Source of the DNA: Candidatus Micrarchaeota archaeon
GTDB taxonomy: Archaea; Micrarchaeota; Micrarchaeia; Norongarragalinales; SBBD01
Length of the DNA stretch: 64,000 nucleotides
NCBI GenBank assembly: GCA_018819225.1
Contig: JAHJQN010000004.1
Coordinates: 66,813-130,812, forward strand
Direction: 5' to 3'
Shown in pieces: positions 30,414 through 52,697 of this stretch. The position numbers and the translations under genes are program-made. Every line of letters starts with the position of its first letter. Positions within the stretch are counted from its first letter, which is position 1. The notes under the pieces were generated by a model that was not told the DNA's origin, made no database searches, and saw nothing but the letters and a program-made list of their open reading frames with translations.

Positions 30414-31334
30414 TTGAACATGGGAGAAACTCCCGCAGTTATCCGATGGCTCAAAACAAAAGAACCACGCTTCCAATTAAAGAAAAGCGACCTGATTTCA
30501 GGTGAGGAACTAGGAGCGTTATTGGCCGCATGTGACACTGTAAAAAAACGATTCTTTATTGCGGTTTTATATGAAAGTGGTGCACGAATAGGCGAATTGC
30601 TTTCTGCCACCGTTGGAAACGTAAAAGTAGACGCACATGGCATCATGTTAAGTGTAGACGGAAAAACAGGCCCGCGTTCTATACGATTAGTAACTTCTGC
30701 CGGTCAATTCGGAGAATATCTTAACGGACATCCCGAACGCAACAATCCAGATGCTCCCTTATTTTATTCAATTAAAGACGGACAATGCAAACAATGCGAA
30801 TACTGGACCGCTGCCAAAATGATGCGTCGTTTATTCACGAAGGCGGGCGTTTCAAAAGAAAAAGCCCACTTCCATCTGTTTAGGCACAGCCGTGCAGCAG
30901 AAACGAAGCGATTCATGCCCGAAGATTACCAACGAAGATTTTTTGGATGGGCTCATGGATCGGATATGCCCAGTCATTACGGAGCATTAGATTCCAGTGA
31001 CCTAGATAACATTTTACTATCCGCTTACGGAAAAGCGCAACGGAATGCGACAATTCCCGAGATCATTAACCGAATCTGTGAGTGCTGTCATCATGAGAAC
31101 TTTCCATCATCTGCATATTGTAGTGGATGCGGATGGAAACTCGGATTAAAGGCATCTCAATTACCACTAACCGAGCGCGAAATAGCTTTACTAAAGATCA
31201 TTGCGAACGCTCCGAACTATGAACAAGTGGTTTCATCCCTTCCAACGAATGAATTGGAGAAAATTACTTCTCGATTAATTGATTTACGAGATGGGGACCG
31301 GGACATTAAGTCAGGCGCTGGGGATGGGATTTGA
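30414..31334 (+). CDS. Tyrosine recombinase / phage-type integrase (XerA-like catalytic domain) with C-terminal zinc ribbon
   Basis: 306 aa. The catalytic residues appear in the canonical order: GARIGEL (Arg I), DGKTGPRSIRL (Lys), HLFRHS (His/Arg II), WAHGS (His) and PSHYGAL (Tyr nucleophile). It also has CECCHHEN...CSGCGWK. Its stop overlaps the 3' end of tRNA-Ser(CGA). Confidence 0.8.
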   Translation: MNMGETPAVIRWLKTKEPRFQLKKSDLISGEELGALLAACDTVKKRFFIAVLYESGARIGELLSATVGNVKVDAHGIMLSVDGKTGPRSIRLVTSAGQFGEYLNGHPERNNPDAPLFYSIKDGQCKQCEYWTAAKMMRRLFTKAGVSKEKAHFHLFRHSRAAETKRFMPEDYQRRFFGWAHGSDMPSHYGALDSSDLDNILLSAYGKAQRNATIPEIINRICECCHHENFPSSAYCSGCGWKLGLKASQLPLTEREIALLKIIANAPNYEQVVSSLPTNELEKITSRLIDLRDGDRDIKSGAGDGI

Positions 31335-31441
31335 ACCCATACGGGCCAGAGGCCCACCAGATATCTGGTCTTTCAACCTTTTTTTATAGTGTAGGCGAAA
31401 GATCTCGAGTCTGGCGCGTTACCGGATTCCGCCACCCCAGC
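31316..31441 (-). tRNA. tRNA-Ser(CGA), type II, with an intron of about 41 nt in the anticodon loop
   Basis: Manual fold: acceptor GCUGGGG/CCCCAGC; D-arm GCG...CGC; anticodon stem CCAGA/UCUGG with loop CUCGAGA (anticodon CGA); long variable arm GGGCC-UCU-GGCCC; T-arm AUGGG-UUCAAAU-CCCAU; discriminator G. About 41 nt are inserted at 37/38 (AUCUUUCGCCUACACUAUAAAAAAAGGUUGAAAGACCAGAU). Confidence 0.7.
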
Positions 31442-35829: not shown

Positions 35830-35925
35830 TAATCACATAAAATAACTATATAAACGCTCGGACGGCCTTTTCAAAAAAGTCGACCAAAAGTTGCATTTGA
35901 ATAATATGCACTCAATTTAAGAAAA

Positions 35926-35946
35926 AAAGCGGGCCCAACGGGATTC
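35926..35946. repeat. 21-bp direct repeat copy (duplicate of tRNA-Arg 3' end), aaagcgggcccaacgggattc
   Basis: Identical to 35989-36009 (the 3' acceptor/T-arm end of tRNA-Arg plus a 4-nt trailer), 42 bp upstream of it. Confidence 0.6.
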
Positions 35947-35988
35947 CGAACGACCTTTCTTATGAAGAAAGCTCGACCAAAGAAAAAG

Positions 35989-36009
35989 AAAGCGGGCCCA
36001 ACGGGATTC
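35989..36009. repeat. 21-bp direct repeat copy within tRNA-Arg 3' end
   Basis: See 35926-35946. Confidence 0.6.
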
Positions 36010-36175
36010 GAACCCGCAACCTACTGGTCTCTCCCCCATCACGCTGTTGCGCCGAAGGAAAAAGGACTAGCCCTTTTCCCGGGACCGAAGCCACGACTTC
36101 CGTCTCTTCCAATAAAAAGTGAAAGAGCAAGTGGGACCGGAACCAGTCGCTCTGTCCTGGTTGAGCTATGGGCCC
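35993..36175 (-). tRNA. tRNA-Arg(CCG) with an unusually long intron (about 108 nt) at the canonical 37/38 position
   Basis: Manual fold. Exon 1: GGGCCCA-UA-GCUC-AACCAGGACA-GAGC-G-ACUGG-UUCCGG. Exon 2: A-CCAGU-AGGUU-GCGGG-UUCGAAU-CCCGU-UGGGCCC-G. The acceptor, D, anticodon and T stems pair perfectly except for one G-U pair in the T stem. The anticodon is CCG. The sequence 36029-36136 is intronic. The intron length is far above typical, so the exact exon junctions are tentative. Confidence 0.55.
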
Positions 36176-40767: not shown

Positions 40768-41541
40768 ATGTTAGAGGAGGATTTGATCGAACTGGGCCTC
40801 ACCAAGAACGAAGCAAGAGTATACCTTTCGCTTCTGAAAAAGGGGCCGCTCACCGCCCACGAGATTTCCAACGCCTCGGGCATCTATCGGCCGTCGGTAT
40901 ACGATTGCCTGAATACGTTGATGGAGCAAGGTTTGACAAGTTACATTCTTGTCGAAGGAAAGAAACGTTTCCAGGCCGCGAACCCCCGTTCGTTGGAGGA
41001 TTACTATGAACAACGTCTTCAGAAAGTGAAACAAGTGGTAGTCGAACTGTCAAAATTCTCTCCGAAAGAACGGGAAGTGGCGACCGTTGAAGTTTATCGG
41101 GGACGCAAGGCGTTGAAGAAAGCCTTCCGGGACATTCTGGTGGAATTAAAGCGAACCCGGGTGCCTCATTTGGGAATGGGCATTGACGACTCCTACTTTA
41201 TCAATGAGGATCCGTACTTCAGTGAATGGTTCATACGAAATTTGGAAAAACAAAACTTGAAAGAAAAGATGATCACGTTCGAGGGAGCAACGGGATTCGC
41301 TGGCGGAAAGACCACCGAATACCGATTTATTCCTCCGGAATTCTTCAATCCAACGAACATCCTGATTGACGGCAACTTGGTTACGATCATCATTTGGACC
41401 GAGCCGCGATATGTCATTAAAATCCGCAGCAAACAGATCTCGGAATCGTACCGCAAACAGTTCGAGCTGATGTGGCGCGGAGGTAAGAAAATGAAGTGGA
41501 CTCAATCGTTCAGGCAGCGGGTTCCTTTGAAGAACGCATAA
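40768..41541 (+). CDS. TrmB-family transcriptional regulator
   Basis: 257 aa. The N-terminal wHTH LGLTKNEARVYLSLLKKGPLTAHEISNASGIYRPSVYDCLNTLMEQGL is typical of TrmB. A C-terminal effector-binding-like domain follows. Confidence 0.75.
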   Translation: MLEEDLIELGLTKNEARVYLSLLKKGPLTAHEISNASGIYRPSVYDCLNTLMEQGLTSYILVEGKKRFQAANPRSLEDYYEQRLQKVKQVVVELSKFSPKEREVATVEVYRGRKALKKAFRDILVELKRTRVPHLGMGIDDSYFINEDPYFSEWFIRNLEKQNLKEKMITFEGATGFAGGKTTEYRFIPPEFFNPTNILIDGNLVTIIIWTEPRYVIKIRSKQISESYRKQFELMWRGGKKMKWTQSFRQRVPLKNA

Positions 41542-43165
41542 ATACGCGGGTCATCCGCTTGCCAAGGTCTCCGACCCGTCGAATGGCATTATGGAAGCGC
41601 CAGTTCGGTGGGTAATACAGTAGATGCCGGTTTCCCAGCCATCCAACAACCCCCAATTCTGATCGAAATTTTCTAAGTCTCTCTGTTTCGGATCCTCCTG
41701 CTGAAACAATGCTCTTATTCCCATCAGGCAATCGGTCATGTATCTTCTGGAGCGTGTGATAAACAAGTGCGGCTCCGGCTTGTCTGACCATTTCACCCCC
41801 CAATCCCGCCGGAAGCTCCAATTTCGTTGGTGTAATCAATGCAATAGCGGCATATACGGGTCGCAATTGTTCTCGCTTTACCCATTCTTCTCGAGATTCT
41901 CCCAATCTTTTTTTTTCGCGTTTATCCGCGGTTGCATTCAATCGACTTCCAGTGACACCGAGTCCGCTTCGAGTTAACTCGGCAATCGTGTTTCGAAAAG
42001 GATGTCCACGAGGAAGATCTTCTCTTCGGAGTTCCCGGACGACGCCTGGACCAAAATACCCTATGTGTTCATAGGCCGCAAATCCGAAGGGAATGCGCCG
42101 ATTCGATCGTCCTCGAGAACCGGTGTAGCTTAGGTAAACCATGTACAAGGGATGAGTTGCGGTTGATTTAAATCGAAGGTACATTTGGTGAGCTGCAATA
42201 GCCGTTCCAATATCTTCACCAGTTCTTCTGTGCATCTGAGGTGCCCATTGTTTGAGCACTTGAAGCGCGTCGGAACGATGTAGGTATGGATGGTAGTTTT
42301 CGACTCGAATCGCTACGCCCTTCGGCAATGAATTTCGAAATTCTTTCAATTTTCTAACGAGTGAGGGTTTTGGGGAAGTAAATACGTGTTCCAAAGAAAT
42401 GAGCGGGGAAGCATACCGATCATCATCCATTGGCCATTTTCCATCCCACTTGTCCCCTCTACGATAATCCGTAAATCCCTGCTCCTTCGTCAACCTCAGT
42501 TCAAGAAATGGATTTGCTTTTTTTACGATGACCTTGTCTCGGGTCGACTTTCCGAGTTGTTCAGAAATAATTCGGGTTAGGGCAGCCATGCGACGAGGTT
42601 TTCCCTCGGGGCTCAAAATGACGAAAGGAGCCCTATTGTGCTCTTTGGTCGCAATGATGAGGAATCCGTCACTGCCTCCATTGAGGAGGACGATCCATGG
42701 TCTTTCGCAGTGACGGGCGGCTTGCATTGCCCACAGAATCGAGCGGCCATAATGTGGGACAATCTGAGTTTTTTCAAGCCCCTCTTTTCTCAGTAATTTT
42801 TGGCTTAGGGAATAAACGTCTTCATTGGATAAAGGGCGTATCTCAACATTCGGCGTTTTACCCCGATTCTGATATATCGCCATACGGTTTTCAATGGACT
42901 CCGTGTTTTGCGACAAGATCTGCAAATGGTGTTCGTATGGTTTCATTCGTTGGGCTTCAATCGAAGCGGTGAGATGGACGGCTTCTTTCTCCCTATGTAT
43001 ATTTTCCAAATGCCTGATTTGATCCTGATGGGCTCTCAACTGTTTTTGAATTCTTCGTTCAATCCATTCCGGACTCCGCCCAACCAAACGACGGGATTCC
43101 GTTACCGAATTCGGTATCCGGGTGGGCCACCTCCACTCTTCGTGTTTTTGCTTTTTCGGGGCCAT
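41510..43165 (-). CDS. Hypothetical 551-aa protein, possibly GNAT-fold (DUF2156/FemAB-like)
   Basis: Basic N-terminal coiled-coil region. The C-terminal two thirds alternate beta-strand and helix, with segments such as WIVLLNGGSDGFLIIATKEHNRAPFVILSPEG and YMVYLSYTGSRGRSNRRIPFGFAAYEHIGYF. The DUF2156 resemblance is from memory only. It is the last gene of the minus-strand paralog array. Confidence 0.3.
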   Translation of the reverse strand: MAPKKQKHEEWRWPTRIPNSVTESRRLVGRSPEWIERRIQKQLRAHQDQIRHLENIHREKEAVHLTASIEAQRMKPYEHHLQILSQNTESIENRMAIYQNRGKTPNVEIRPLSNEDVYSLSQKLLRKEGLEKTQIVPHYGRSILWAMQAARHCERPWIVLLNGGSDGFLIIATKEHNRAPFVILSPEGKPRRMAALTRIISEQLGKSTRDKVIVKKANPFLELRLTKEQGFTDYRRGDKWDGKWPMDDDRYASPLISLEHVFTSPKPSLVRKLKEFRNSLPKGVAIRVENYHPYLHRSDALQVLKQWAPQMHRRTGEDIGTAIAAHQMYLRFKSTATHPLYMVYLSYTGSRGRSNRRIPFGFAAYEHIGYFGPGVVRELRREDLPRGHPFRNTIAELTRSGLGVTGSRLNATADKREKKRLGESREEWVKREQLRPVYAAIALITPTKLELPAGLGGEMVRQAGAALVYHTLQKIHDRLPDGNKSIVSAGGSETERLRKFRSELGVVGWLGNRHLLYYPPNWRFHNAIRRVGDLGKRMTRVFMRSSKEPAA

Positions 43166-43485
43166 AACCCTTTTGATAATCTAATCCTATATAATTCCAA
43201 TTGAAAGAGTATCGTTCCCGATTGAAAAAAATAATTAACGCAAACAAGTAAAACAATTTAAACATGTATTCGTTATTGGCTTCATTGAGCTTTAGAGAGT
43301 TTGCGTTTTCTAATCCACATGACCAGCATTATTAAAAAAAATCCCGCCAGTACGGGTATTCCCCGGTCTCCCAACTCCCCCCGTAACGCGCTCCTCAACC
43401 CAAACCAAACCGCGAGAAAGAGCAGAATAACGCCTCCAAGCTTGAGGAGTGTAATGGGTGATTTATCTTTCAATTATTTCGCCTT

Positions 43486-44145
43486 CTATTTCCGGAAAAC
43501 CGCCTTAATCTCACACCGACGGTGGGGCGTTCCATGAAATACGTGTTTATAGGCATCTAATGCCAACGATTCCATGTTGAAGCCTTCTCTCTGGAATGCC
43601 TCACGGACTTCCTTTTCTTCAAAATAATGAACCCAAACGTTATTTCCTTTACGGAATGTCCCCGGCTCCACTTCTTCCCCTTTTCCGCTGCGCAAATCCG
43701 TTCGCTCAAAACCCTTGAAGTAGCATAAGCCCCCGGGTTTCAAAACACGATAGGCTTCCGCAATAGCGGCCTCGCGTTCACTTAGATTAAGGTGTCCGAC
43801 AATATGAAATAAGAAAACAACATCAAAAAAATTACGTTGAAAATTAAGTGTGCACAAATCGCCAACCGTGATATTCGCTTTTGCCTTGAATAATTTAGCT
43901 CGTTCTTTGGCTAAAGAAATAGCAGTTGGAGAAACATCAATGGCGTATAGCTCGAATCCTTTGTTGAATAGAGAGCTCAAATGTTTTCCATTGCCACACC
44001 CGACTTCGAGAATTCGGCTTCCTTCCGGTAGATCGAGTTTGAAATTCGTGGTTCCCCGCCATCTTCCTCTCCCCGACTTGTACTCTTTTTCCCAAGCATA
44101 CACGTGATGCTTTGATAACGGACCAGAAGAATAGGGCAATGGCAT
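43486..44145 (-). CDS. Class I SAM-dependent methyltransferase
   Basis: ILEVGCGNGKHL is SAM-binding motif I. AIDVSPTAISLAKERA is the motif II region. VVFLFHIVGHL and LKPGGLCYF follow. Length 219 aa. Confidence 0.75.
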   Translation of the reverse strand: MPLPYSSGPLSKHHVYAWEKEYKSGRGRWRGTTNFKLDLPEGSRILEVGCGNGKHLSSLFNKGFELYAIDVSPTAISLAKERAKLFKAKANITVGDLCTLNFQRNFFDVVFLFHIVGHLNLSEREAAIAEAYRVLKPGGLCYFKGFERTDLRSGKGEEVEPGTFRKGNNVWVHYFEEKEVREAFQREGFNMESLALDAYKHVFHGTPHRRCEIKAVFRK

Positions 44146-44157
44146 TCCTCATCATCC

Positions 44158-44649
44158 TTATACCGGCCTGGCTTTTTTCCCCAACCGGGTTTGTAAACAC
44201 TCGAACGTTGTCGGAACCGACAAATCAAGGTGAAATCGCTCAAAATCTTTTCCCTGTTTATCGGTGGATCGAAATCCCATTTGATGGAAGTGATCCATCA
44301 GTTTCGTATTAATCACCGGAATAGATGCATGGCGAATTCCTTGTTTCCGTAACCAATTAAATGATTCCAACCGCAGCTTGATTCGTATCGTATTATCTCG
44401 AATTTGTTGGTGAATAAGTCGCGTGTCCATTCCCCCGCGACCGTTCGATTGAATGCGTGAAAAGGCTAGACCAATCATTCGATTACCCGAATAAGCGGCG
44501 TGAACGATGTTTTCTTTTTCCCTGAAATAAGATTCCGCTTCGTTGGGTAATACCGGTGCACCCGTGTCGCCGCTGAGAAATCGACGTACTTGAGCTCGGT
44601 CTCTCTCGTTAAGTTTTTGGAGGGCTTGAATTTCATATCGTTCCGCCAC
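44158..44649 (-). CDS. GNAT-family N-acetyltransferase (paralog 3)
   Basis: 163 aa. GNAT motif A region RMIGLAFSRIQSNGRGGMDTRLI...WLRKQGIRHASIPVINTKLMDHFHQMGFR. The N-terminus (ELQKLNERDRAQVRRFL) is conserved with the other two GNAT paralogs. Confidence 0.65.
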   Translation of the reverse strand: MAERYEIQALQKLNERDRAQVRRFLSGDTGAPVLPNEAESYFREKENIVHAAYSGNRMIGLAFSRIQSNGRGGMDTRLIHQQIRDNTIRIKLRLESFNWLRKQGIRHASIPVINTKLMDHFHQMGFRSTDKQGKDFERFHLDLSVPTTFECLQTRLGKKARPV

Positions 44650-44672
44650 GGTTTGATCGCCTGCATTATTTG

Positions 44673-45026
44673 TTACGCTTTGGTAATTCGTTTAACGAGA
44701 ACTTCAGGATTCACAAACGCATTTTTTTCGTTGTCGAAATACGTCTGAACCGCTTTTTCGCCCACACTCTTGAAAAACGAGTCCCAGGCATCCGCATACT
44801 CCGGTTTCAATCCAGCTTTTTTCATCTTAGGAAGTTCTTCGGGGAGAAACGGAGTCAATATTACAGAGGCGTTCTCCAAATCCGTCGCGGAAGGCTTCCG
44901 AGCGAATACGCCACGCGATTTCACATCGAACTCGAACCCTTTTTCCGTAAATATGGCTTGCAATGTTTTCGCAACTGCATTACTGGAAATGCCGTGATCG
45001 CAAACCACGAGGATTTCTTTGTTCAT
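44673..45026 (-). CDS. Small Cys-motif protein, paralog 3 (CxxGxSS; PTS-EIIB-like/Rossmann-like fold suspected)
   Basis: 117 aa starting MNKEILVVCDHGISSNAVAKTL. It shares the VVVC-x-x-G-x-(R/S)-S N-terminal motif with 46124-46651 and 47224-47685. Confidence 0.4.
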   Translation of the reverse strand: MNKEILVVCDHGISSNAVAKTLQAIFTEKGFEFDVKSRGVFARKPSATDLENASVILTPFLPEELPKMKKAGLKPEYADAWDSFFKSVGEKAVQTYFDNEKNAFVNPEVLVKRITKA

Positions 45027-45074
45027 GATATTATAGATACATGGGTGTTCAAATGCTTTTCCTCCGGATTAATT

Positions 45075-45560
45075 TCAAGGAAATTTTCTTACGCGTTGTT
45101 CAACGTGCGCCCATTCCGCTGCATTTCCAATAGGTATGTCGAAGCGTTTTTGGGCGGGATTAACGGATTCCGTTCTTTCCGGAAATCCGGACAAGCGAAG
45201 ACTCCGGATAATGCGGTTGTTTTCCACGCGACGAATGCTGGCAGTTTTTGCTCCGCGATTCCGTAACCCGTTTAAAGTGGATAAAAACAATCGGTTCCCA
45301 ATGTTTCGATATCGTTCGCTGGGCTCAACCAATACGTACGACAAACGACCCCGTTCCTTATTTATGCTGGTTAACGCGAATCCCACGATTCGACCTCCCC
45401 TAAAAGCGGCATGAATGAACCGATTAGGTGACGAAAAGAATGCTTTGACCGATCGCTCCGAAACCGCGTGTTCGCGTTCCGATTTCAACAAATCGAGAAT
45501 TTGTTTCCGGTGACCCTGGTCCAAGTGCTGCAATTCACGGAATTTCACAAGTTTCGGCAT
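45075..45560 (-). CDS. GNAT-family N-acetyltransferase (paralog 2)
   Basis: 161 aa. RIVGFALTSINKERGRLSYVLVEPSERYRNIGNRLF...LRNRGAKTASIRRVENNRIIRSLRLSGF. The N-terminus is KFRELQHLDQGHRKQILDLL. Confidence 0.65.
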   Translation of the reverse strand: MPKLVKFRELQHLDQGHRKQILDLLKSEREHAVSERSVKAFFSSPNRFIHAAFRGGRIVGFALTSINKERGRLSYVLVEPSERYRNIGNRLFLSTLNGLRNRGAKTASIRRVENNRIIRSLRLSGFPERTESVNPAQKRFDIPIGNAAEWAHVEQRVRKFP

Positions 45561-45591
45561 GATCTCACTTCTTTTTTCGACATATTAGCTA

Positions 45592-46131
45592 TTATAATCG
45601 TTCCATTCGATGTTGCAATAAACCAATTTTTTTCCTTAATATGCGTAGTGCTATGCTGGTAAGCGGAACTCCGCCTCCTTGATCAAATCCGCCGCCACCT
45701 TCAGGTTCCTCGGTTCGAAACGCAAATCCCTTTTTCTGTGCAGCCAGTGTTGAAAGAACGCCTACATCTTGGGGACCAAATGTCTCGGATTTCCAACCAT
45801 TTGCCACGAATCTAAAATGGCTGGCGGGAAAATGACCTTTTTGGTGGGGATGTGGTTCAAGTGATAGGGTAAGTCGGACTTTGTCGCCTAAATCCCCTTC
45901 AACACGGTGAGTAAGCCCACCCGTATGAACGGCACGGATCTGGTTAGACTCTTCAAATAAGTGCAATACGACTTCTCTTACTCGTCCAGGGGCCGTAACC
46001 CTTGGAAGAACGCGCAATAGCGTTCTGCGGACATTATGCAAATCCCCTTCCCGAATCTTTTCGTGATGGGTCGATAGCACTCGATCAACGAATCCTTCCC
46101 ATTCCCTCGATTTAGGTGTTGATTTAACCAT
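45592..46131 (-). CDS. HPH-motif protein family member (intact copy); possible HIT/GalT-like nucleotidyl-transfer fold
   Basis: 179 aa containing LSLEPHPHQKGHF. His-Pro-His is the GalT/HIT-branch active-site pattern. It is a paralog of the frameshifted gene at 46724-47217. It overlaps the upstream gene by 8 nt. Confidence 0.35.
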   Translation of the reverse strand: MVKSTPKSREWEGFVDRVLSTHHEKIREGDLHNVRRTLLRVLPRVTAPGRVREVVLHLFEESNQIRAVHTGGLTHRVEGDLGDKVRLTLSLEPHPHQKGHFPASHFRFVANGWKSETFGPQDVGVLSTLAAQKKGFAFRTEEPEGGGGFDQGGGVPLTSIALRILRKKIGLLQHRMERL

Positions 46132-46651
46132 TTCTATTACCGTTCCTTTTGGTACTAACTTGCAACTTGCCTTGTTTTTTCAATGCTCGAATAATCTCCT
46201 TGACCAGTAGCTTCGGATCCTTATAACCAGAAGCGTCTCTCACCGAAAAAAATCCGGGTCTGTCAACAAAAAATAAGTATGGAATTTCGGGGTGAGAAAG
46301 AACGAATTCGGGATAGTTTTTGTACATGCCGGGTTTTTTTTTCTTTCGCTTGAATTCTCGACCATTTTCCGGAGTTCTTTTTTTTGGTAAGGGTCCGATA
46401 ATGACATTCGGGTTTCCGATGTCCGGCCAAATTCGATCGCGATGTGAGTATATTGCAGAAGAAATGGGAAGGTAGCGGGCTCGGACGTTATGACCTTGTT
46501 TAGTAAAATGGGCATTCAATTCCCTCGATATTTGGCTACTGCGGTCTCCAGCCAAGCAAACGACTACGACGTCCTTCTGGGGCTGCCCCGCTCCATAGGG
46601 ATCTTGCCTAAAAAATTCAACTGGTTTATGGTATAGCTTTTTTATTGGCAT
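46124..46651 (-). CDS. Small Cys-motif protein, paralog 2 (CxxGxRSS)
   Basis: 175 aa with DVVVVCLAGDRSSQISREL near the N-terminus and a Lys-rich middle. Confidence 0.4.
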   Translation of the reverse strand: MPIKKLYHKPVEFFRQDPYGAGQPQKDVVVVCLAGDRSSQISRELNAHFTKQGHNVRARYLPISSAIYSHRDRIWPDIGNPNVIIGPLPKKRTPENGREFKRKKKKPGMYKNYPEFVLSHPEIPYLFFVDRPGFFSVRDASGYKDPKLLVKEIIRALKKQGKLQVSTKRNGNRNG

Positions 46652-46723
46652 TCAATCACTTGTTATTAATTGTATGAACTAATCTGCTTGTCTGGCCGTC
46701 TGTATTAAATCAGAAATTATTTT

Positions 46724-47217
46724 CTACATCTTCATTAAAGCTAAACGCTTACCAGGGACTCCTCCGCCCGGATCCATCGTATCTATCAATGATCCCACAA
46801 TTTCGTAATTTGTAATATCTTTCGGGCGCGCTAGCGAAAAGTGAATTCCCATATCGCGGTCTTCAAAATGTTCTCTATTCCATCCTTCAGTTACCCAATG
46901 AATGCCCATGCGGGCGTGCAGCGGTTTGCTTCCTTCACGAGAAACGAATAGAGTCAAACGCATATTATCGCCCAGGTTCCCTTCAATACGCATTTTTCGA
47001 CCGCCAAAGCTCACTGCGCGTACCCGATTTGATTTTTTAAATAAACTGCGAATAAAGCCTCTCTAGCAAAAACGGGTTCTTGGGCATGTTGTATTACGCG
47101 GATGAGTTCGCGCTGTACATGGTTTTGGTCTCCTGATCGAATTTTATCATGATGAGTGCTAACGTATCGGCGTATGTATTCTTCATTTTCTGATTCGCGA
47201 GGCCTTGGCATAACCAT
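46724..47217 (-). pseudogene. Frameshifted copy of the HPH-motif family gene (split into ORFs 47011-47217 and 46724-47014)
   Basis: The upstream ORF (YVSTHHDKIRSGDQNHVQRELIRV...) aligns with the N-terminus of 45592-46131 (VLSTHHEKIREGDLHNVRRTLLRV...). The downstream ORF (IEGNLGDNMRLTLFVS...GGGVP) aligns with its C-terminus (VEGDLGDKVRLTLSLE...GGGVP). The frames switch near KNQIGYAQ* / NRVRAVSFGG. The HPH motif is replaced by SKPLHAR. Confidence 0.5.
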
Positions 47218-47223
47218 CCAGCT

Positions 47224-47685
47224 TTACTTATGTCCCGGCACTAATTTTAGGTGTTCCGCTATACTCCACCACAATTCATGCATGGGCACTAAATCGCCCC
47301 CTTTTACCATAAACGGAAATATGGGCCGATTCCCGGCTTCCGTTACTAACAACTTCCAGTTTTTTGCGTATTCTACGGCCCCTTTGTCACGTTGGAGCCG
47401 TAAAGATTTCTCTGCGAGAGAAAGAATTTCCGATCGATCCGAAGGAGTCACGAATGCATCGGCTTTTTGTATATACTCTCGTCGACGAGCTTCTGACAAG
47501 CGTTGTAACGGAATGACAAATACCCGAACGGGATGATTCGCCAAATCAAATCGAATTTGCAATAATCGTTTAATATAACCACTGCGCGTCCCATGGTCGC
47601 ATACTACTGCAACGTGTTTTTCGAGGAGTCCTTCCACGAATCGTGCGCGTTCCCTTCCTTTCTTCGATAAATGAAGGCTCATCAT
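47224..47685 (-). CDS. Small Cys-motif protein, paralog 1 (CxxGxRS)
   Basis: 153 aa with HVAVVCDHGTRSGYIKRLL. Its start overlaps the stop of 47682-48311 by 4 nt. Confidence 0.4.
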   Translation of the reverse strand: MMSLHLSKKGRERARFVEGLLEKHVAVVCDHGTRSGYIKRLLQIRFDLANHPVRVFVIPLQRLSEARRREYIQKADAFVTPSDRSEILSLAEKSLRLQRDKGAVEYAKNWKLLVTEAGNRPIFPFMVKGGDLVPMHELWWSIAEHLKLVPGHK

Positions 47686-48311
47686 TCCAATGTCCCGCGA
47701 TTTTTTTGTTCGGAGGGTATTACAACCCAGAAAGTCCCGCGTCGTGTATACGGGTCCCTGTGCACGTGAAGGCGGGCTTTTTCCGCCTTAATGGCCTGCT
47801 TCAAATCCCTTTGAATTGGTTTCTGGGATTCCAAAAAATTCTCAGGAACCAGGAACCGGGTGTTCATTAATCGGGCAACGCGTATAGCGGTTTGGAATCC
47901 GGTCACGCGCCATCGCTGGTACTCTTTCGGAAGACCCCGAGGAAGCGGGAAAGCGTAGTGTTTCGAGTGGCCCTGCACTCCAACGAGTCGGAGCATTGAC
48001 GGGTTTTCGCTTGATTCCCGCATCCGTTTGAATACGAGGTGGAGACTTCCGATGGAACCCAGGTGCCGCGAGGCCGGACCGTGCGGGTGAACATGAGCCC
48101 CGGATTTTTCGTGGGCATGAAAATGTTCGGCTCGAGGGAAGATGAGGATGGGTGCGAAGCGTCCCTGCTCCAATCCTTTCACGTTCTCGTATGAAACGGT
48201 GACTAGATTGCCTTTTCGGGCTACGCGCCATTCACCGTCGGAGTGCTCGAAATTGCCTCGTTTATAAGCCCACGCGTGCCGGGCCAAGTCATTTGGAGAG
48301 AAAGCGGTCAT
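47682..48311 (-). CDS. His-rich HxHxH/HPH-motif protein, possible HIT-superfamily (GalT/Ap4A-phosphorylase-like) nucleotidyltransferase/hydrolase
   Basis: 209 aa with AEHFHAHEKSGAHVHPHGPASRH. These are two H-x-H-x-H runs, and the second contains HPHG, which resembles the GalT active-site HPHGQ. Confidence 0.35.
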   Translation of the reverse strand: MTAFSPNDLARHAWAYKRGNFEHSDGEWRVARKGNLVTVSYENVKGLEQGRFAPILIFPRAEHFHAHEKSGAHVHPHGPASRHLGSIGSLHLVFKRMRESSENPSMLRLVGVQGHSKHYAFPLPRGLPKEYQRWRVTGFQTAIRVARLMNTRFLVPENFLESQKPIQRDLKQAIKAEKARLHVHRDPYTRRGTFWVVIPSEQKNRGTLE

Positions 48312-48535
48312 GACCGAATTCGCCTACTTACCCTTTGTTTTTACTTTGCAGAACGGCGAGATTTCTCATTCCTTTACACACATGCAGGGTATTTCCCGAA
48401 ATCGGATTGCTCGTTAATTCCACTTCAGTGATTGCGTCAAGAATTCTCACTTGGACGTCGCCTCCATGCCGTTTAGGACCTCTAACGTAAACAACAATTG
48501 CCGCCACATTATTCACTTGTTCTTATGAATATGAA

Positions 48536-49027
48536 CTAAATGGATAGGATTTTTTCCCATGATCTCTTATTCTGAAGTGGGATATAAAATGAGACCTCAG
48601 GAGTGTCTGGTGTTTTAATCTTTCGAAACCCTAGTGAAGTCAGCTTTGCGATGATTGCTGGCCTATAGACAGGGACGAACGCCTGTTTGACCCCCCTTTT
48701 CCTTAGCCAATCCAAACTATTACGAAACAATTGCCTTCCAACTCCCAAATACCGATGGGCTTCTGCAACATAACCAAAATAGACTATTGGTTTAGGCGGA
48801 TCGCCGATTCGTGAGAAAGCGACGCCCACCAATTTTCCATCGACTCGTGCGGTATGAACTGCATGATCCGTTCCATCAAAGAAATCGGACGCATTACTGA
48901 ATCCGGAGACTTCATAGGGACCTATCCAACGCTCGCCTCGATCTGCTGCTTTCAATAAGTCCTCAACCTCCAATCTGTTTCGGAGACTCAAGTTATGGAG
49001 TTTTTCGTATTCAACCATTTTTACCAT
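48536..49027 (-). CDS. GNAT-family N-acetyltransferase (paralog 1)
   Basis: 163 aa. KLVGVAFSRIGDPPKPIVYFGYVAEAHRYLGVGRQLF...WLRKRGVKQAFVPVYRPAIIAKLTSLGFR. The N-terminus is YEKLHNLSLRNRLEVEDLL. Confidence 0.65.
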   Translation of the reverse strand: MVKMVEYEKLHNLSLRNRLEVEDLLKAADRGERWIGPYEVSGFSNASDFFDGTDHAVHTARVDGKLVGVAFSRIGDPPKPIVYFGYVAEAHRYLGVGRQLFRNSLDWLRKRGVKQAFVPVYRPAIIAKLTSLGFRKIKTPDTPEVSFYIPLQNKRSWEKILSI

Positions 49028-49307
49028 TTATACCATCTCGCTATAACGTCTGTTTTCAAACCATCAACTCATCCATCATCTTAATATAGCCAATCCCTTT
49101 TTTTATCATTTTTGATTTCTTTGCCTTTGGAGGAAGCGTTTAGGCAAGCCCCCATGGCCCCAATTTCCCCCAGCACATTAAAATGATGAAACCACCATAT
49201 CAAAACCTCCAAACCCTCGTTTTTCCGGTTCCATCATCCCAAGAAAACGACTTGCGTACATCACCTCGTTATATTGCTACGTTGTTAATATTAGGCAAAG
49301 AGGTCGC

Positions 49308-49454
49308 TTATTTTTTCTTCGAGATGGGGGTTAAACTATTCATTTCTTTTTCAATTTTTTCAAGCGTGTTATTTATTCTCTTTAATTGAACTTCAACAGC
49401 CGAAATCAACCACCCGAATAAAAGAACGGAGAGCAGGGCTAACAAGTCATTCAT
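49308..49454 (-). CDS. Small membrane/coiled-coil protein (48 aa), below the ORF-track length cutoff
   Basis: Manual translation: MNDLLALLSVLLFGWLISAVEVQLKRINNTLEKIEKEMNSLTPISKKK. It is preceded by the conserved inverted-repeat motif at 49468-49485 and an AAGGTGGTG Shine-Dalgarno-like sequence. Confidence 0.3.
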   Translation of the reverse strand: MNDLLALLSVLLFGWLISAVEVQLKRINNTLEKIEKEMNSLTPISKKK

Positions 49455-49467
49455 TATTCACCACCTT

Positions 49468-49485
49468 GTTCTTACCCATACGAAC
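49468..49485 (-). promoter_or_regulatory. Conserved inverted-repeat motif, copy 3 (GTTCGTATGGGTAAGAAC in gene sense)
   Basis: GTTC-N10-GAAC palindrome about 13 nt upstream of the small ORF start. The other copies are at 50065-50082 and 50480-50497. Confidence 0.5.
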
Positions 49486-49488
49486 CAC

Positions 49489-50076
49489 TTATTTTATGTT
49501 ATGGGATCGTTTAAACATTTCCGCGCATTTCTCCAACAACTTCCTTTGTCTAGGGTTAAGGGCGATGTGAGAGTTTAAGGGAAGGGCGGCGATACGGCGC
49601 GCGAGATGTTCCATGAACGGGTACTCGTTGGGAGACAAAGCGGTTTTATTGCGCGTTTGGCCAGTAGGATCGTTGGAAAAGTATTCGATTCGAGCTCCGC
49701 GGCCGCCAGGCGATCGCGTCCACTTGTGTTCAACCCGGAAATAATGGCGGCCCACACCAAATTGGTTTCTACGGCTTCGGTCGGGCAAAGTCACGGGCTG
49801 AGTTGATGCGGGTGAATTCCAGGAACGAAAATCCTGAATGACGATGTCCACGCCTTTAGTATGGAGGACGACAAGACCCGTGATCCCCATGCCAGGATAA
49901 TTGGAACCGTCCGCTTGCTTGAATTGGAAATCCGCTTGAAAACCCGTTTTTCCTACAAGACCTTCGAACCGGTGAGCTTTAAACACGAGTTTTTCGGGAA
50001 GCGCAAGTTCACGCATCTCTTGAAGGTGAGGCAAACGAGATCGTTCCAAACCCTTATTTTCTTTGTTCATACCCAT
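49489..50076 (-). CDS. Hypothetical protein
   Basis: 195-aa ORF. The annotated start lies inside inverted-repeat copy 2, so the true start may be the downstream Met (MRELALPEK...). Confidence 0.35.
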   Translation of the reverse strand: MGMNKENKGLERSRLPHLQEMRELALPEKLVFKAHRFEGLVGKTGFQADFQFKQADGSNYPGMGITGLVVLHTKGVDIVIQDFRSWNSPASTQPVTLPDRSRRNQFGVGRHYFRVEHKWTRSPGGRGARIEYFSNDPTGQTRNKTALSPNEYPFMEHLARRIAALPLNSHIALNPRQRKLLEKCAEMFKRSHNIK

Positions 50077-50082
50077 ACGAAC
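50065..50082 (-). promoter_or_regulatory. Conserved inverted-repeat motif, copy 2 (GTTCGTATGGGTATGAAC)
   Basis: Identical to copy 1. It overlaps the annotated start of 49489-50076. Confidence 0.5.
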
Positions 50083-50466
50083 TCACGTTTTTTCCTTGAT
50101 ATGATAGAAACGATTCGGAACCGAATAATCCCTGCGAAGCCATTTCCTTAAAATCCGCTTCCCCCATTCAGGGTTACTTTTTTTCGTTATTTCTATCTTC
50201 GTCCTTTGCACACCGCTGCGATCCACGAGCAACAACAAATCCAGCTTGATTGGGTCCTCACCGCGGACCAACTGCAACTTACCAGTATCGAGCTCGACGA
50301 ATTTCTTTAACCTCCGCACAGCTTCCCCTTCTCCGTGCGCCGCGTTCATCACCGTGAAGTCTAAGGGGTGAAACGGAACCACGATGTGGCCATCTTCATG
50401 CAATTTGAAGGGAATGCGTTTCTGATCCAACAACTTTCCGATCTTTTCTAAAGGGCGTTCTTGCAT
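50083..50466 (-). CDS. Hypothetical protein
   Basis: 127-aa ORF. It is preceded by inverted-repeat copy 1 and a GAGGTGG Shine-Dalgarno-like sequence 7 nt before the ATG. Confidence 0.35.
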   Translation of the reverse strand: MQERPLEKIGKLLDQKRIPFKLHEDGHIVVPFHPLDFTVMNAAHGEGEAVRRLKKFVELDTGKLQLVRGEDPIKLDLLLLVDRSGVQRTKIEITKKSNPEWGKRILRKWLRRDYSVPNRFYHIKEKT

Positions 50467-50479
50467 AAAAAACCACCTC

Positions 50480-50497
50480 GTTCATACCCATACGAAC
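50480..50497 (-). promoter_or_regulatory. Conserved inverted-repeat motif, copy 1 (GTTCGTATGGGTATGAAC)
   Basis: GTTC-N10-GAAC palindrome 15-30 nt upstream of the start of 50083-50466. Confidence 0.5.
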
Positions 50498-50503
50498 CAT
50501 TTT

Positions 50504-50872
50504 TCATTTTCGTTCTTGAATGATAATAAAATTCTTTTTTCCTACTGCAGCATGCATAACGTTTACTTCTCGTCCGTGAGCCCCTAAATTCATTACTAAC
50601 CGAAGCAGGTAGCGGTGCACATTGGGAAATTCTTGCCCATATTTTCCCAATTCGACATTCGTGCGAACAGATCGCGTAAAGACCTTGACTGCTTCAGGAG
50701 TTACGGGACGTAGCCCAAGAATTTCTGCATCAGCATGAACAGCTAAAGAAATGAGTCTTTCAGTATTATTAGGGGTAAAAGGAATGCTTAAGCCCTTGCC
50801 GACCCAATGATGTTGCACACCAACACGACTAAATACTCGTGAGAGAAGCAATGAAGCGGATTCACGAACCAT
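50504..50872 (-). CDS. Hypothetical protein
   Basis: 122-aa ORF with no motif recognised. Confidence 0.3.
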   Translation of the reverse strand: MVRESASLLLSRVFSRVGVQHHWVGKGLSIPFTPNNTERLISLAVHADAEILGLRPVTPEAVKVFTRSVRTNVELGKYGQEFPNVHRYLLRLVMNLGAHGREVNVMHAAVGKKNFIIIQERK

Positions 50873-50901
50873 ATTTTATCGTCCAAAATACTCGTAAACA
50901 T

Positions 50902-51228
50902 TCATCCATGTTGATAAATGTGTAATTCCCGCCCTAATTTAATGGATTTCTTATCCCTACCGCGGTAGGTCACAGTAGCTAACGTGTGCTCAATGGCATT
51001 CCGCGGAACACCTGCTTCCTGGCAGAGGCGATGTAAAATGGGCCCGTGCAATAAAATTCCTTGTTTACCGGGATATTCATCTTTCAAGACAGCTAGTAAG
51101 TGGTCTGCATGATCGTTCGTGAGACGAATCACTAAACGCCTCTGAGACCTTTCAAGATTAGAAATGATTTTGCGTCGGTTTAAAGCCTGTTGAAGCTTTT
51201 CTAAATGATTAAAATTATTGGTATTCAT
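50902..51228 (-). CDS. Hypothetical protein
   Basis: 108-aa ORF with no motif recognised. Confidence 0.3.
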   Translation of the reverse strand: MNTNNFNHLEKLQQALNRRKIISNLERSQRRLVIRLTNDHADHLLAVLKDEYPGKQGILLHGPILHRLCQEAGVPRNAIEHTLATVTYRGRDKKSIKLGRELHIYQHG

Positions 51229-51238
51229 ATATCTTTCA

Positions 51239-51577
51239 TTATTTTTTTAAAGAAATTTTGATACCCACCAACTCCTTATTCTTACGTAAATGTTCAAAAT
51301 GGAATCGAGAGGAATCGTGTCCATGGCGTTCCAAGAGAGCTCGAAGCATGACGACACGCCAGTCTCGATGGAGGCCTCCGGAAATCGGTCGTTGTATATG
51401 CTCCATTTGGCGGTCCAAGCCCAAATCTGCCCATTGCCGGTGCAAAATCCGTTCAACGGAGAGGCCATCAAATTGAGTTCCTACCTGAACCAAAACGTGG
51501 TCTTTAGCAAGGACCGGGTACAGTCTTTCCTCACTCAAAATGCGATGGAATTCCGCTGGGGACGGGACTTTAGGCAT
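51239..51577 (-). CDS. Hypothetical protein
   Basis: 112-aa ORF with no motif recognised. Confidence 0.3.
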   Translation of the reverse strand: MPKVPSPAEFHRILSEERLYPVLAKDHVLVQVGTQFDGLSVERILHRQWADLGLDRQMEHIQRPISGGLHRDWRVVMLRALLERHGHDSSRFHFEHLRKNKELVGIKISLKK

Positions 51578-51590
51578 AAAACATCATCTT

Positions 51591-52085
51591 TCATTCAAGG
51601 GAATATAAAGCATTCTGACACCATTTTAGTTGTTTTTGAGCATCATAATAAGCAGTTTCTGCAGGAGAAACAATGCCTACAGCACCGAAACCCAAGCGAA
51701 TTAGATTCGTGTTCTGGATAAAGCGACGAGCAGCAGCTCCGGCATCTATAGCGGAACCACAGACCACTCGTTCATTCGGAGGCAAGGGTTCTGTAATGCA
51801 CGTTACTGCTGCAGTGATGGAATAGGAGTCGAAATCAGGTGGACATTCATTAATCCAAGCAAGAAAATCATTGCGATCCATGTGCTGTTCGGCGTACGAG
51901 TAAATCATTGTGTAGGTTGAGGCATCCACATCCCCAAAATGTTCGGAAGCCAGACGATCGGGAATCAACTGGCTATTCTTGAACTTTTCTGCATGAGGAA
52001 AGAGAACGAATACCGTAAACACGATAAAAAGGAATACCAATCCGGCACCCCACACGACGCGTTTGTCCGATTTCATTCCGTTCAC
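51591..52085 (-). CDS. Membrane-anchored (signal-anchor) secreted hypothetical protein
   Basis: 164 aa. An N-terminal TM helix (VVWGAGLVFLFIVFTVFVLF) is followed by a Cys-containing soluble domain. Confidence 0.35.
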   Translation of the reverse strand: MNGMKSDKRVVWGAGLVFLFIVFTVFVLFPHAEKFKNSQLIPDRLASEHFGDVDASTYTMIYSYAEQHMDRNDFLAWINECPPDFDSYSITAAVTCITEPLPPNERVVCGSAIDAGAAARRFIQNTNLIRLGFGAVGIVSPAETAYYDAQKQLKWCQNALYSLE

Positions 52086-52382: not shown

Positions 52383-52697
52383 TTATTCAGCACCCGGATT
52401 AATGTATATACTTTTTGGGAGAGTGCGTAGCCGGGCGATTTCTTCAAGAATTTTTTCGGTAAGGGAAGGCGGCAAGTATATTGAAATCCAATCAAGAGAC
52501 TCTTGAATAGCGTCCAATGATTTGTAGAATGGAATTCCCTCAATTGAAGTGTTTTTTAAATTAACTGGGAATACTCGATGACCACGTTTTAAAAACGCTC
52601 GAACGGCTATGTTACCGAACTTTCTGCGGTCAGGTGAGGTCCCCACTATAGCAATATTCATCAACATCACGGGAGAAACGAATTTGGCAATTTTCAT
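52383..52697 (-). CDS. CoA-binding domain protein (COG1832-like)
   Basis: 104 aa. IAIVGTSPDRRKFGNIAVRAFLKRGHRVFPVNLK...GIPFYKSLD matches the small CoA-binding/Rossmann pattern. Confidence 0.55.
   Translation of the reverse strand: MKIAKFVSPVMLMNIAIVGTSPDRRKFGNIAVRAFLKRGHRVFPVNLKNTSIEGIPFYKSLDAIQESLDWISIYLPPSLTEKILEEIARLRTLPKSIYINPGAE

Follow-up and report, generated by a model that had tools for sequence, protein, structure and literature searches.

A densely packed run of genes on the minus strand of a 64,000-nucleotide (nt) stretch of contig JAHJQN010000004.1 from Candidatus Micrarchaeota archaeon (hereafter the window, to which all positions refer) raises the question of whether small-protein families that recur side by side form a conserved system or reflect local gene turnover. 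The initial annotation had proposed an undescribed system in which a module of a GNAT acetyltransferase, a cysteine-loop (Cys-loop) protein and a histidine-triad-like protein is repeated. The best explanation, to which we give a probability of roughly 0.6, is that the locus is a taxonomically restricted island in an undersampled Micrarchaeota (DPANN) genome, shaped by local duplication, divergence, fusion and decay, and is not a conserved multi-component system. The island contains three GNATs, three single-cysteine P-loop proteins, a rare alpha+beta family, a class I S-adenosylmethionine (SAM)-dependent methyltransferase and about ten ORFans, and each of its pieces is either a member of a known superfamily or an ORFan of a sort common among DPANN archaea.

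In the list of open reading frames (ORFs), the co-oriented run comprises about 20 minus-strand genes, from 52085 down to 41510 (about 10 kb). Every ORF listed by the initial annotation exists on the minus strand at the coordinates it was given. The extent of 43486-50872 holds only in part: the ORFs inside it are real, but the run is longer, and the gene for a 551-residue protein (g551, 41510-43165) that had been counted in lies outside that range. In the core of the array the genes follow one another in the order GNAT_C, orf62, His209, Cys_C, HPH pseudogene, Cys_B, HPH179, GNAT_B, Cys_A, GNAT_A and the methyltransferase MT219. The members of the repeated families, together with His209 and MT219, are as follows.

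48536-49027, minus strand: GNAT_C, a GNAT acetyltransferase with the canonical acetyl-coenzyme A (acetyl-CoA) loop R92-Y-L-G-V-G97.
47682-48311, minus strand: His209, an ORFan with a histidine cluster, H63-F-H-A-H67 ... H73-V-H-P-H77 (nt 48081-48125).
47224-47685, minus strand: Cys_C, 153 residues, a Cys-loop paralog (VVC29-DHGTRSG) encoded by a chimeric gene.
46724-47217, minus strand: frameshifted HPH-family paralog (pseudogene), with the N-terminal part at 47011-47217 and the C-terminal part at 46724-47062 in another frame.
46124-46651, minus strand: Cys_B, 175 residues, a Cys-loop paralog (VVVC32-LAGDRSS) with a D-P pair before the last helix.
45592-46131, minus strand: HPH179, the only intact local member of a rare family, with HPH at residues 94-96 in a variable loop.
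45075-45560, minus strand: GNAT_B, a GNAT acetyltransferase with the partial acetyl-CoA motif RYRNIG.
44673-45026, minus strand: Cys_A, 117 residues, with a single cysteine in the P-loop VVC9-DHGISS and a predicted fold of the low-molecular-weight protein tyrosine phosphatase (LMW-PTP) / phosphotransferase system (PTS) EIIB type.
44158-44649, minus strand: GNAT_A, a divergent GNAT paralog with the degenerate acetyl-CoA loop RDNTIR.
43486-44145, minus strand: MT219, a class I SAM-dependent methyltransferase (Methyltransf_11, 7e-23; Methyltransf_25, 4e-22).

The paralogy that had previously been judged by eye is upheld by alignment statistics for three families. GNAT_A, GNAT_B and GNAT_C share 25-30% identity over their full length with BLASTP E-values of 1e-11 to 1e-14, and their Smith-Waterman z-scores are 20-22, the observed score being reached in none of 200 shuffles. 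The Cys-loop proteins are related too (BLASTP E-values of 1e-7 for A-B, 6e-5 for A-C and 4e-5 for B-C; z 8.7-14.4), and HPH179 matches the two halves of the frameshifted copy at 1.8e-12 and 6.9e-9. Identity within the duplicated families is 25-40%, and no further copy of any family was found in the 64-kb window. The proposal that a few small-protein families have duplicated and diversified here is supported.

The history of these duplications is recorded most clearly in Cys_C. Its residues at about 8-24 (KGRERARFVEGLLEKH) match the N-terminus of the HPH-family profile with an hhalign probability of 68% and an E-value of 4.8e-5. When the 843 ORFs of the window were searched with the HPH profile by hmmsearch, Cys_C was the sole match outside the family (E 7e-4; the next 1.1), and its 16.6 bits compare with at most 7.9 bits in shuffles, with none of 3000 shuffles reaching the real score. 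The HPH-type match stops exactly where the alignment with Cys_A starts (VAVVCDHG versus ILVVCDHG). Cys_C is therefore a chimera, in which the 5′ end of an HPH-family gene, about 24 codons long, is fused to a Cys-loop gene. The chimeric N-terminus shows that the ancestral repeat was a pair, an HPH-family gene followed by a Cys-loop gene, which occurs three times: as the remnant fused to Cys_C, as the frameshifted copy followed by Cys_B, and as HPH179 followed by GNAT_B and then Cys_A. A repeat unit of this kind does exist, but the clean module of GNAT, Cys-loop and histidine-triad proteins does not. Only one of the three HPH-family copies is intact, the others being frameshifted or reduced to the 24-codon remnant. 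The frameshift noted earlier is real in the sequence: it is a single-base shift near 47045-47055, outside any long homopolymer, and the fragments are called alike in the NCBI, JGI, ENA and Logan assemblies.

The HPH family is rare, with no more than three or four remote relatives. An exhaustive hidden Markov model (HMM) search with its profile returned three true remote homologs, P0008 (1e-10), P0009 (1e-6) and P0011 (4e-4); two other candidates, P0010 and P0012, were repetitive false positives. The HPH tripeptide, which the initial annotation took as the family motif, is not conserved: the frameshifted paralog reads SREGSKPLH at that place, and HPH aligns to non-histidine residues in this paralog, in all three remote homologs and in the copy at locus L005. 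The family is instead characterized by F-V-x-x-L-L-x-x-H-x-x-K-I-x-x-G-D, R-V-E-G-D-L-G-D-N-V-R and G-W. The structural model of HPH179, of moderate confidence over residues 4-116, predicts three helices, a four-stranded antiparallel sheet and a C-terminal helix, with HPH in a loop joining two strands. The sole Pfam match of HPH179 at E<=1 is a sub-threshold one to PAS_6 (0.037).

Conserved co-occurrence of these families in other genomes, whose absence had been named beforehand as a refutation of an undescribed system, was found nowhere else. The contigs that carry HPH homologs (L002-L006) contain YdjM-like, HTH_20, proteasome beta, mechanosensitive (MS) channel and methyltransferase genes, and none of these loci holds a relative of the Cys-loop proteins, the GNATs, His209 or g551. 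HPH-family genes stand in tandem at L005 (2028-2558 and 2599-3123) and at L006 (925-1455 and 1496-2020), followed by ORFans of 121 and 85 residues, so the family has duplicated locally outside the window as well. On two independent contigs the HPH homolog has a YdjM-like membrane hydrolase gene divergently upstream of it (L002, 735-1730; L005, 183-653), and at L005 a 293-residue Methyltransf_11 gene is located between the YdjM-like and HPH-family genes. The island in the window has a methyltransferase and no YdjM gene.

A word-indexed search of 5.8 billion proteins, in which E-values scaled to billions cause weak relatives to be missed, returned only self-matches for HPH179, g551 and the Cys-loop profile. 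All 12 of the island proteins that were looked up are singletons at 90% identity, and the exact sequence of the upstream ORFan p164 has no entry in the protein collection. Locus searches with the HPH, Cys and GNAT profiles, g551 and His209 in GTDB genomes, JGI metagenomes and IMG/VR were empty; because not even a self-match was returned, the source metagenome-assembled genome is apparently missing from the genome and metagenome collections. Scans of Pfam, NCBIfam, PHROGs and PADLOC, in which not every protein was compared with every library, found nothing for HPH179, Cys_B and Cys_C. Sequence searches of the PDB with the Cys, HPH and GNAT profiles, His209, g551 and Cys_A gave only generic GNAT and methyltransferase matches at significance, and nothing specific was found in the literature.

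These observations favour the birth and death of genes within one lineage. There is no support for a tightly co-adapted machine, because HPH copies are frameshifted or reduced, GNAT_A has lost its acetyl-CoA loop and Cys_A lacks the loop arginine. The intact members would be enzymes that work independently and modify small molecules or proteins. An acetyl group would be transferred from acetyl-CoA to an amine by GNAT_C and perhaps by GNAT_B, and MT219 may methylate a small molecule. In Cys_B and Cys_C, the only cysteine, predicted to sit in a C-x-x-G-x-R-S cradle at the N-terminus of helix 1, would be the nucleophile and may transiently carry a phosphoryl, arsenyl or sulfur group. The degenerating duplicates would be GNAT_A and Cys_A, with key loop residues lost, and the two broken HPH copies. 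A role in variable detoxification or modification of host-derived compounds is plausible.

Several points weigh against this explanation. The lineage is poorly sampled, the adjacent CoA-binding protein also being alone in its cluster at 90% identity, and the absence of the module elsewhere may partly reflect sampling; word-index searches with E-values scaled to billions overlook weak relatives. Furthermore, the tight packing and the overlaps between genes (4 nt for His209/Cys_C and 8 nt for Cys_B/HPH179) suggest co-translation, which is compatible with functional coupling, and the three retained HPH-Cys adjacencies could reflect a functional pair.

If the conservative explanation is true, the locus adds to the many lineage-specific islands of hypothetical genes with which DPANN genomes are filled. 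It provides an example of gene birth, fusion and decay through local duplication, in which an intact gene, a frameshifted copy and a fused 24-codon remnant of one family lie within 2.5 kb. Two families are also worth recording: a divergent archaeal branch of the LMW-PTP/EIIB fold, with a single cysteine, a loop of rhodanese length and no PTS genes in the surrounding ~20 kb, and the small HPH family, with four independent loci known so far and no assignable fold. The island would represent a new biochemical module only if the HPH-family and Cys-loop proteins work together.

Such cooperation is the premise of the explanation that survives best among the alternatives, a lineage-specific functional cassette in which an HPH protein and a single-Cys P-loop partner, with GNATs and a methyltransferase acting on the same substrate, have been amplified to diversify specificity. 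As a partner, the HPH protein could, for example, present the substrate to a phospho-, thio- or arsenyl-cysteine enzyme or regulate that enzyme. The threefold adjacency of HPH-family and Cys-loop genes (the fused remnant included), the 8-nt overlap of Cys_B and HPH179, the dense co-oriented array and the sole cysteine kept in all three Cys proteins argue for it. However, Cys-loop and GNAT genes are missing beside all the HPH-family homologs of other loci, only one of the three HPH copies is unbroken, the gene order is not a clean repeat, and no relatives of the Cys family were found elsewhere in which coupling could be tested. The cassette is possible, on the unlikely side. It is doubtful that the pair goes further and constitutes a previously unknown two-component modification unit, private to a Micrarchaeota lineage that has hardly been sampled, with a target on which the GNATs and methyltransferase also act. 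In that case the HPH family, with its predicted N-terminal helical bundle, four-stranded sheet and invariant E-G-D-L-G-D-N hairpin, would be a new fold and function restricted to DPANN-like archaea.

What the Cys-loop proteins are can be stated at the level of the fold. Each contains exactly one cysteine, that of the loop, which reads C-x-x-G-x-R-S in Cys_B and Cys_C and C-D-H-G-I-S-S, EIIB-like and without arginine, in Cys_A. The AlphaFold model of Cys_A is confident (pLDDT 90, from an alignment of the three paralogs only) and places the cysteine at the end of strand 1, ahead of helix 1, as in the LMW-PTP and EIIB families. The model has a PTS EIIB-type fold with the cysteine in the strand 1-helix 1 loop, which is also the overall LMW-PTP/ArsC fold; it is not a rhodanese fold, in which the loop of the catalytic cysteine follows the central strand. 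The resemblance of the loop to EIIB that had been suggested earlier is therefore correct for the fold, but does not extend to membership in PTS_IIB. The Cys proteins fail membership in PTS_IIB, LMWPc and Rhodanese on at least one defining feature each.

PTS EIIB of the lactose/cellobiose/mannitol/galactitol type (PF02302) is the sole sequence-level lead, with Cys_A matching at an E-value of 4e-4 (TIGR00853, 0.0016). We take the C-D-x-G-x-x-S-S loop of Cys_A to resemble the phospho-cysteine loop of IIB proteins. However, Cys_A reaches 21.4 bits against a gathering threshold of 23.6, and Cys_B and Cys_C give no match even at E<=10. Neither EI, HPr, EIIA nor EIIC is present among the genes of the 20-kb neighbourhood, and to our knowledge a PTS is not expected in DPANN archaea. 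LMW-PTPs and LMW-PTP-type arsenate reductases (LMWPc, PF01451) have their cysteine placed likewise, in the loop that runs from the end of strand 1 to helix 1, and in Cys_B and Cys_C the loop is followed by Arg-Ser. The D-P pair before the last helix of Cys_B, where Cys_A has N-P and which is found in Cys_B only, presumably lies where LMW-PTPs carry their general acid, a putative match in sequence position. In contrast to the C-X5-R-(S/T) loop of this family, those of Cys_B (C-LAGD-R-S) and Cys_C (C-DHGT-R-S) are C-X4-R-S, one residue shorter; the loop arginine is missing from Cys_A, Pfam LMWPc gives no match, and identity to structural matches is 8-22%. Unlike ArsC, the Cys proteins have no additional redox cysteines, and with a single cysteine each they lack the ArsC-type disulfide cascade. 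The VVVC-x-x-G-x-R-S loop of Cys_B and Cys_C has the length and pattern of the C-X4-R loop of many single-domain rhodaneses, and there are weak local matches to GlpE (NCBIfam, 0.055) and to the rhodanese domain of NoxA-3 (E 1.4). However, the cysteine follows the first N-terminal strand, not the central strand as in the rhodanese fold, and the Cys proteins have no match to Pfam Rhodanese.

A PTS remnant, a mobile-element remnant, an ars-like island and GNAT toxin-antitoxin modules are all poorly supported. That the island is what remains of an integrated mobile element, virus or plasmid with fast-evolving ORFan cargo is quite unlikely. Small ORFans without homologs are indeed arrayed on one strand, tRNA genes with a duplicated tRNA 3′ end lie 5 kb away, and the GC content at third codon positions (GC3), at 0.31-0.58, is somewhat below that of the flanking genes (0.525, sd 0.066), with GC3 and codon usage slightly below background. 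However, overall GC is equal to that of the flanks, no integrase, capsid, replication or partition gene was found, there are no PHROGs matches and no relatives in IMG/VR or BFVD, and no direct repeats flank 41.5-52 kb.

GNAT_B (31.1 bits, 3e-7) and GNAT_C (34.2 bits, 3e-8) both pass the Pfam Acetyltransf_1 cutoff of 20.7 bits; GNAT_A has no Pfam match, yet is homologous to both at 1e-11 to 1e-12. The acetyl-CoA pyrophosphate-binding loop has the motif Q/R-x-x-G-x-G/A. By alignment, R-Y-L-G-V-G of GNAT_C conforms to it, R-Y-R-N-I-G of GNAT_B does so partially and R-D-N-T-I-R of GNAT_A does not. The best solved match of the GNAT profile is Naa30 (4e-5), the nearest solved relatives being generic and of the Naa30/RimI type, and GNAT_B matches NCBIfam rimI at 1e-5, under the family cutoff. 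The two proteins that pass Acetyltransf_1, GNAT_C with a canonical R-x-x-G-x-G loop, thus resemble RimI/Naa30-like GNATs, but all equivalog scores are far under their cutoffs, so no orthology can be assigned, and GNAT_A has lost the loop. Three copies dispersed in tandem in a single island are also unusual for RimI-type genes. The ELQxLxxxxRxQ segment, which the initial annotation described as a specific N-terminal extension, is not an extension: it occupies the position of the ordinary first strand and helix, as known from the GNAT fold, and the proteins, of only 161-163 residues, leave no room for one. The assignment of a SAM methyltransferase is confirmed by the Methyltransf_11 match of MT219. 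Among solved structures this protein comes closest to phosphoethanolamine N-methyltransferases (9e-17) and further methyltransferases of small molecules, with ArsM at just 8e-4.

These enzymes invite comparison with ars clusters: a divergent metalloid or xenobiotic detoxification island would combine ArsC-like reductases of the LMW-PTP fold, ArsN-like GNATs, an ArsM-like methyltransferase and a neighbouring winged-helix regulator. NCBIfam gives weak matches of GNAT_C to ArsN1b (0.002) and of GNAT_B to ArsN2 (0.13), MT219 weakly matches TehB, TPMT and ArsM, and a TrmB-family regulator is encoded at 40768-41541. Such an island is nevertheless very unlikely. The ars-specific matches are far under their cutoffs and such as any GNAT or class I methyltransferase would give, phosphoethanolamine N-methyltransferases are much nearer to MT219, the P-loop is C-X4-R and not C-X5-R, one cysteine per protein leaves the second and third redox cysteines missing, and ArsB, Acr3, ArsA and ArsR were not detected among the neighbours.

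It is extremely improbable that the island consists of toxin-antitoxin or defence modules of the GNAT type, in which acetyltransferase toxins like TacT/AtaT have small neighbours as antitoxins: the GNATs are near GNAT toxins in size and a small gene adjoins each of them, but PADLOC was empty for the nine island proteins scanned, with GNAT_A as the only GNAT among them, the neighbours adopt either the fold of LMW-PTP/EIIB or an unknown one of alpha+beta type and are not ribbon-helix-helix (RHH) or DUF1778 antitoxins, and the closest solved GNATs are Naa30-/RimI-like, not toxins.

The two remaining structural suggestions of the initial annotation concerned His209 and g551. A link to HIT/GalT had been suggested, and His209 does contain two H-x-H-x-H runs (H63-H67 and H73-H77) and HPH179 P-H-P-H. 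However, neither protein has a HIT or GalT match in Pfam, the HPH-family homologs have none at E<=10, the HIT alpha+beta fold was not found, and the HPH of HPH179 sits in a variable loop and is not kept in its paralog or homologs. His209 has no matches in family scans of Pfam (none even at E<=10), NCBIfam, PHROGs and PADLOC, and no homologs in one remote search (IMG/VR), the large protein databases not having been searched with it. Two relationships considered for His209 were rejected: distant membership in the HPH family (hhalign probability 0.06%) and a local 38-residue similarity to p164 (E 0.005 in a single comparison, z 4.0), which was judged insufficient. A GNAT-like fold of g551 finds no support in its sequence, which is unrelated to the GNAT profile; g551 has no match in Pfam, NCBIfam, PHROGs or PADLOC, in Pfam even at E<=10 and with split halves included. 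A GNAT-like nature of the ORFan p195 was also ruled out at the sequence level.

The remaining genes of the run, and the regulator and CoA-binding genes beside it, are listed from high to low coordinates.

52383-52697, minus strand: stand-alone CoA-binding protein of 104 residues (CoA_binding_2, 2.6e-19), 297 nt upstream of the island on the same strand.
49489-52085, minus strand: upstream block of six ORFans, p195, p127, p122, p108, p112 and p164.
51591-52085, minus strand: p164, ORFan with an N-terminal transmembrane helix.
51239-51577, minus strand: p112, ORFan.
50902-51228, minus strand: p108, ORFan.
50504-50872, minus strand: p122, ORFan.
50083-50466, minus strand: p127, ORFan.
49489-50076, minus strand: p195, ORFan.
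49308-49454, minus strand: tm48, ORF of 48 residues with one predicted transmembrane segment.
48328-48516, minus strand: orf62, short ORF of 59-62 residues between GNAT_C and His209, called as a 59-residue gene in L001.
43282-43473, minus strand: tm63, hydrophobic 63-residue ORF with a TTG start, hypothetical and unannotated by NCBI, whose exact sequence has no entry in the protein collection.
41510-43165, minus strand: g551, 551-residue ORFan and last gene of the run, with its own 116-nt upstream gap containing a TTATATA box.
40768-41541: TrmB-family regulator.

The NCBI locus tags of the island proteins are KJ765_02580 to 02650, labelled "Candidatus Micrarchaeota archaeon", and the DNA of the window is also present in metagenomic contig k141_304414 (ENA ERZ27247117).

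The genes are less uniformly packed than described earlier. The limit of 60 nt on the gaps does not hold throughout, since some of the long ORFs are separated by as much as 72, 116, 224 and 461 nt; the 224- and 461-nt gaps contain the short ORFs of 59-62 and 48 residues. The largest gene-free gap within the array proper is 280 nt of non-coding DNA (49028-49307) upstream of GNAT_C, and a gap of 297 nt lies upstream of p164 at the 5′ edge. With gaps this large, and 280 nt still non-coding before GNAT_C, a single transcript is unlikely. The 280-nt stretch contains TATA-like boxes (TATATTAAG) and probably holds an internal promoter; an Rfam scan of 41-53 kb, this stretch included, gave no match at E<=1. 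The run is likely divided into three or more transcription units: p164 to tm48, GNAT_C to tm63, and g551.

The six upstream ORFans have no significant match in Pfam, and PHROGs and PADLOC returned nothing for p195, p127 and p122 (PHROGs only for p108). Pairwise comparison detected no similarity among the six, and p108, p112, p122 and p127 were ruled out as a fourth paralog family (z at most 1.7). An 18-nt junction motif, GTTCGTATGGGTA(T/A)GAAC, occurs here on the minus strand in three copies (50480-50497, 50065-50082 and 49468-49485), with a degenerate fourth at 48519-48536, four matches against a chance expectation of 0.03. It is part of a repeat of about 44 nt, the copies of which are 80% identical. 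The motif stands 0-7 nt past the stop codons of p122, p127 and p195, and its weaker form follows GNAT_C. In two copies the next start codon comes 13 nt on, via a Shine-Dalgarno-like AGGTGGT sequence, and at the p127/p195 junction an ATG inside the motif is the annotated start of p195. Its hairpin is small and not significant. The motif may be a scar of duplication or may serve as a signal for translational coupling or for processing, and its repetition in the upstream block also points to local duplication.

Farther along the 5′ flank (higher coordinates) lie a Csl4-like gene and Sua5, and the 3′ flank (lower coordinates) contains TrmB, a PKD-domain surface protein and tRNA genes. Two of the latter, at 31316-31441 and 35993-36175 on the minus strand (126 and 183 nt; Rfam 50.3 and 48.4 bits), were missed by ARAGORN and presumably contain archaeal introns; together with the TrmB-family regulator they accord with an archaeal source. 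A 25-nt direct repeat, 96% identical between 35922-35946 and 35985-36009, copies the 3′ end of the tRNA at 35993-36175 to a position 63 nt downstream and resembles the att-site scar of an integrative element. A third, weaker copy (15 of 17 nt) within the TrmB gene, at 41283-41299, is probably due to chance.

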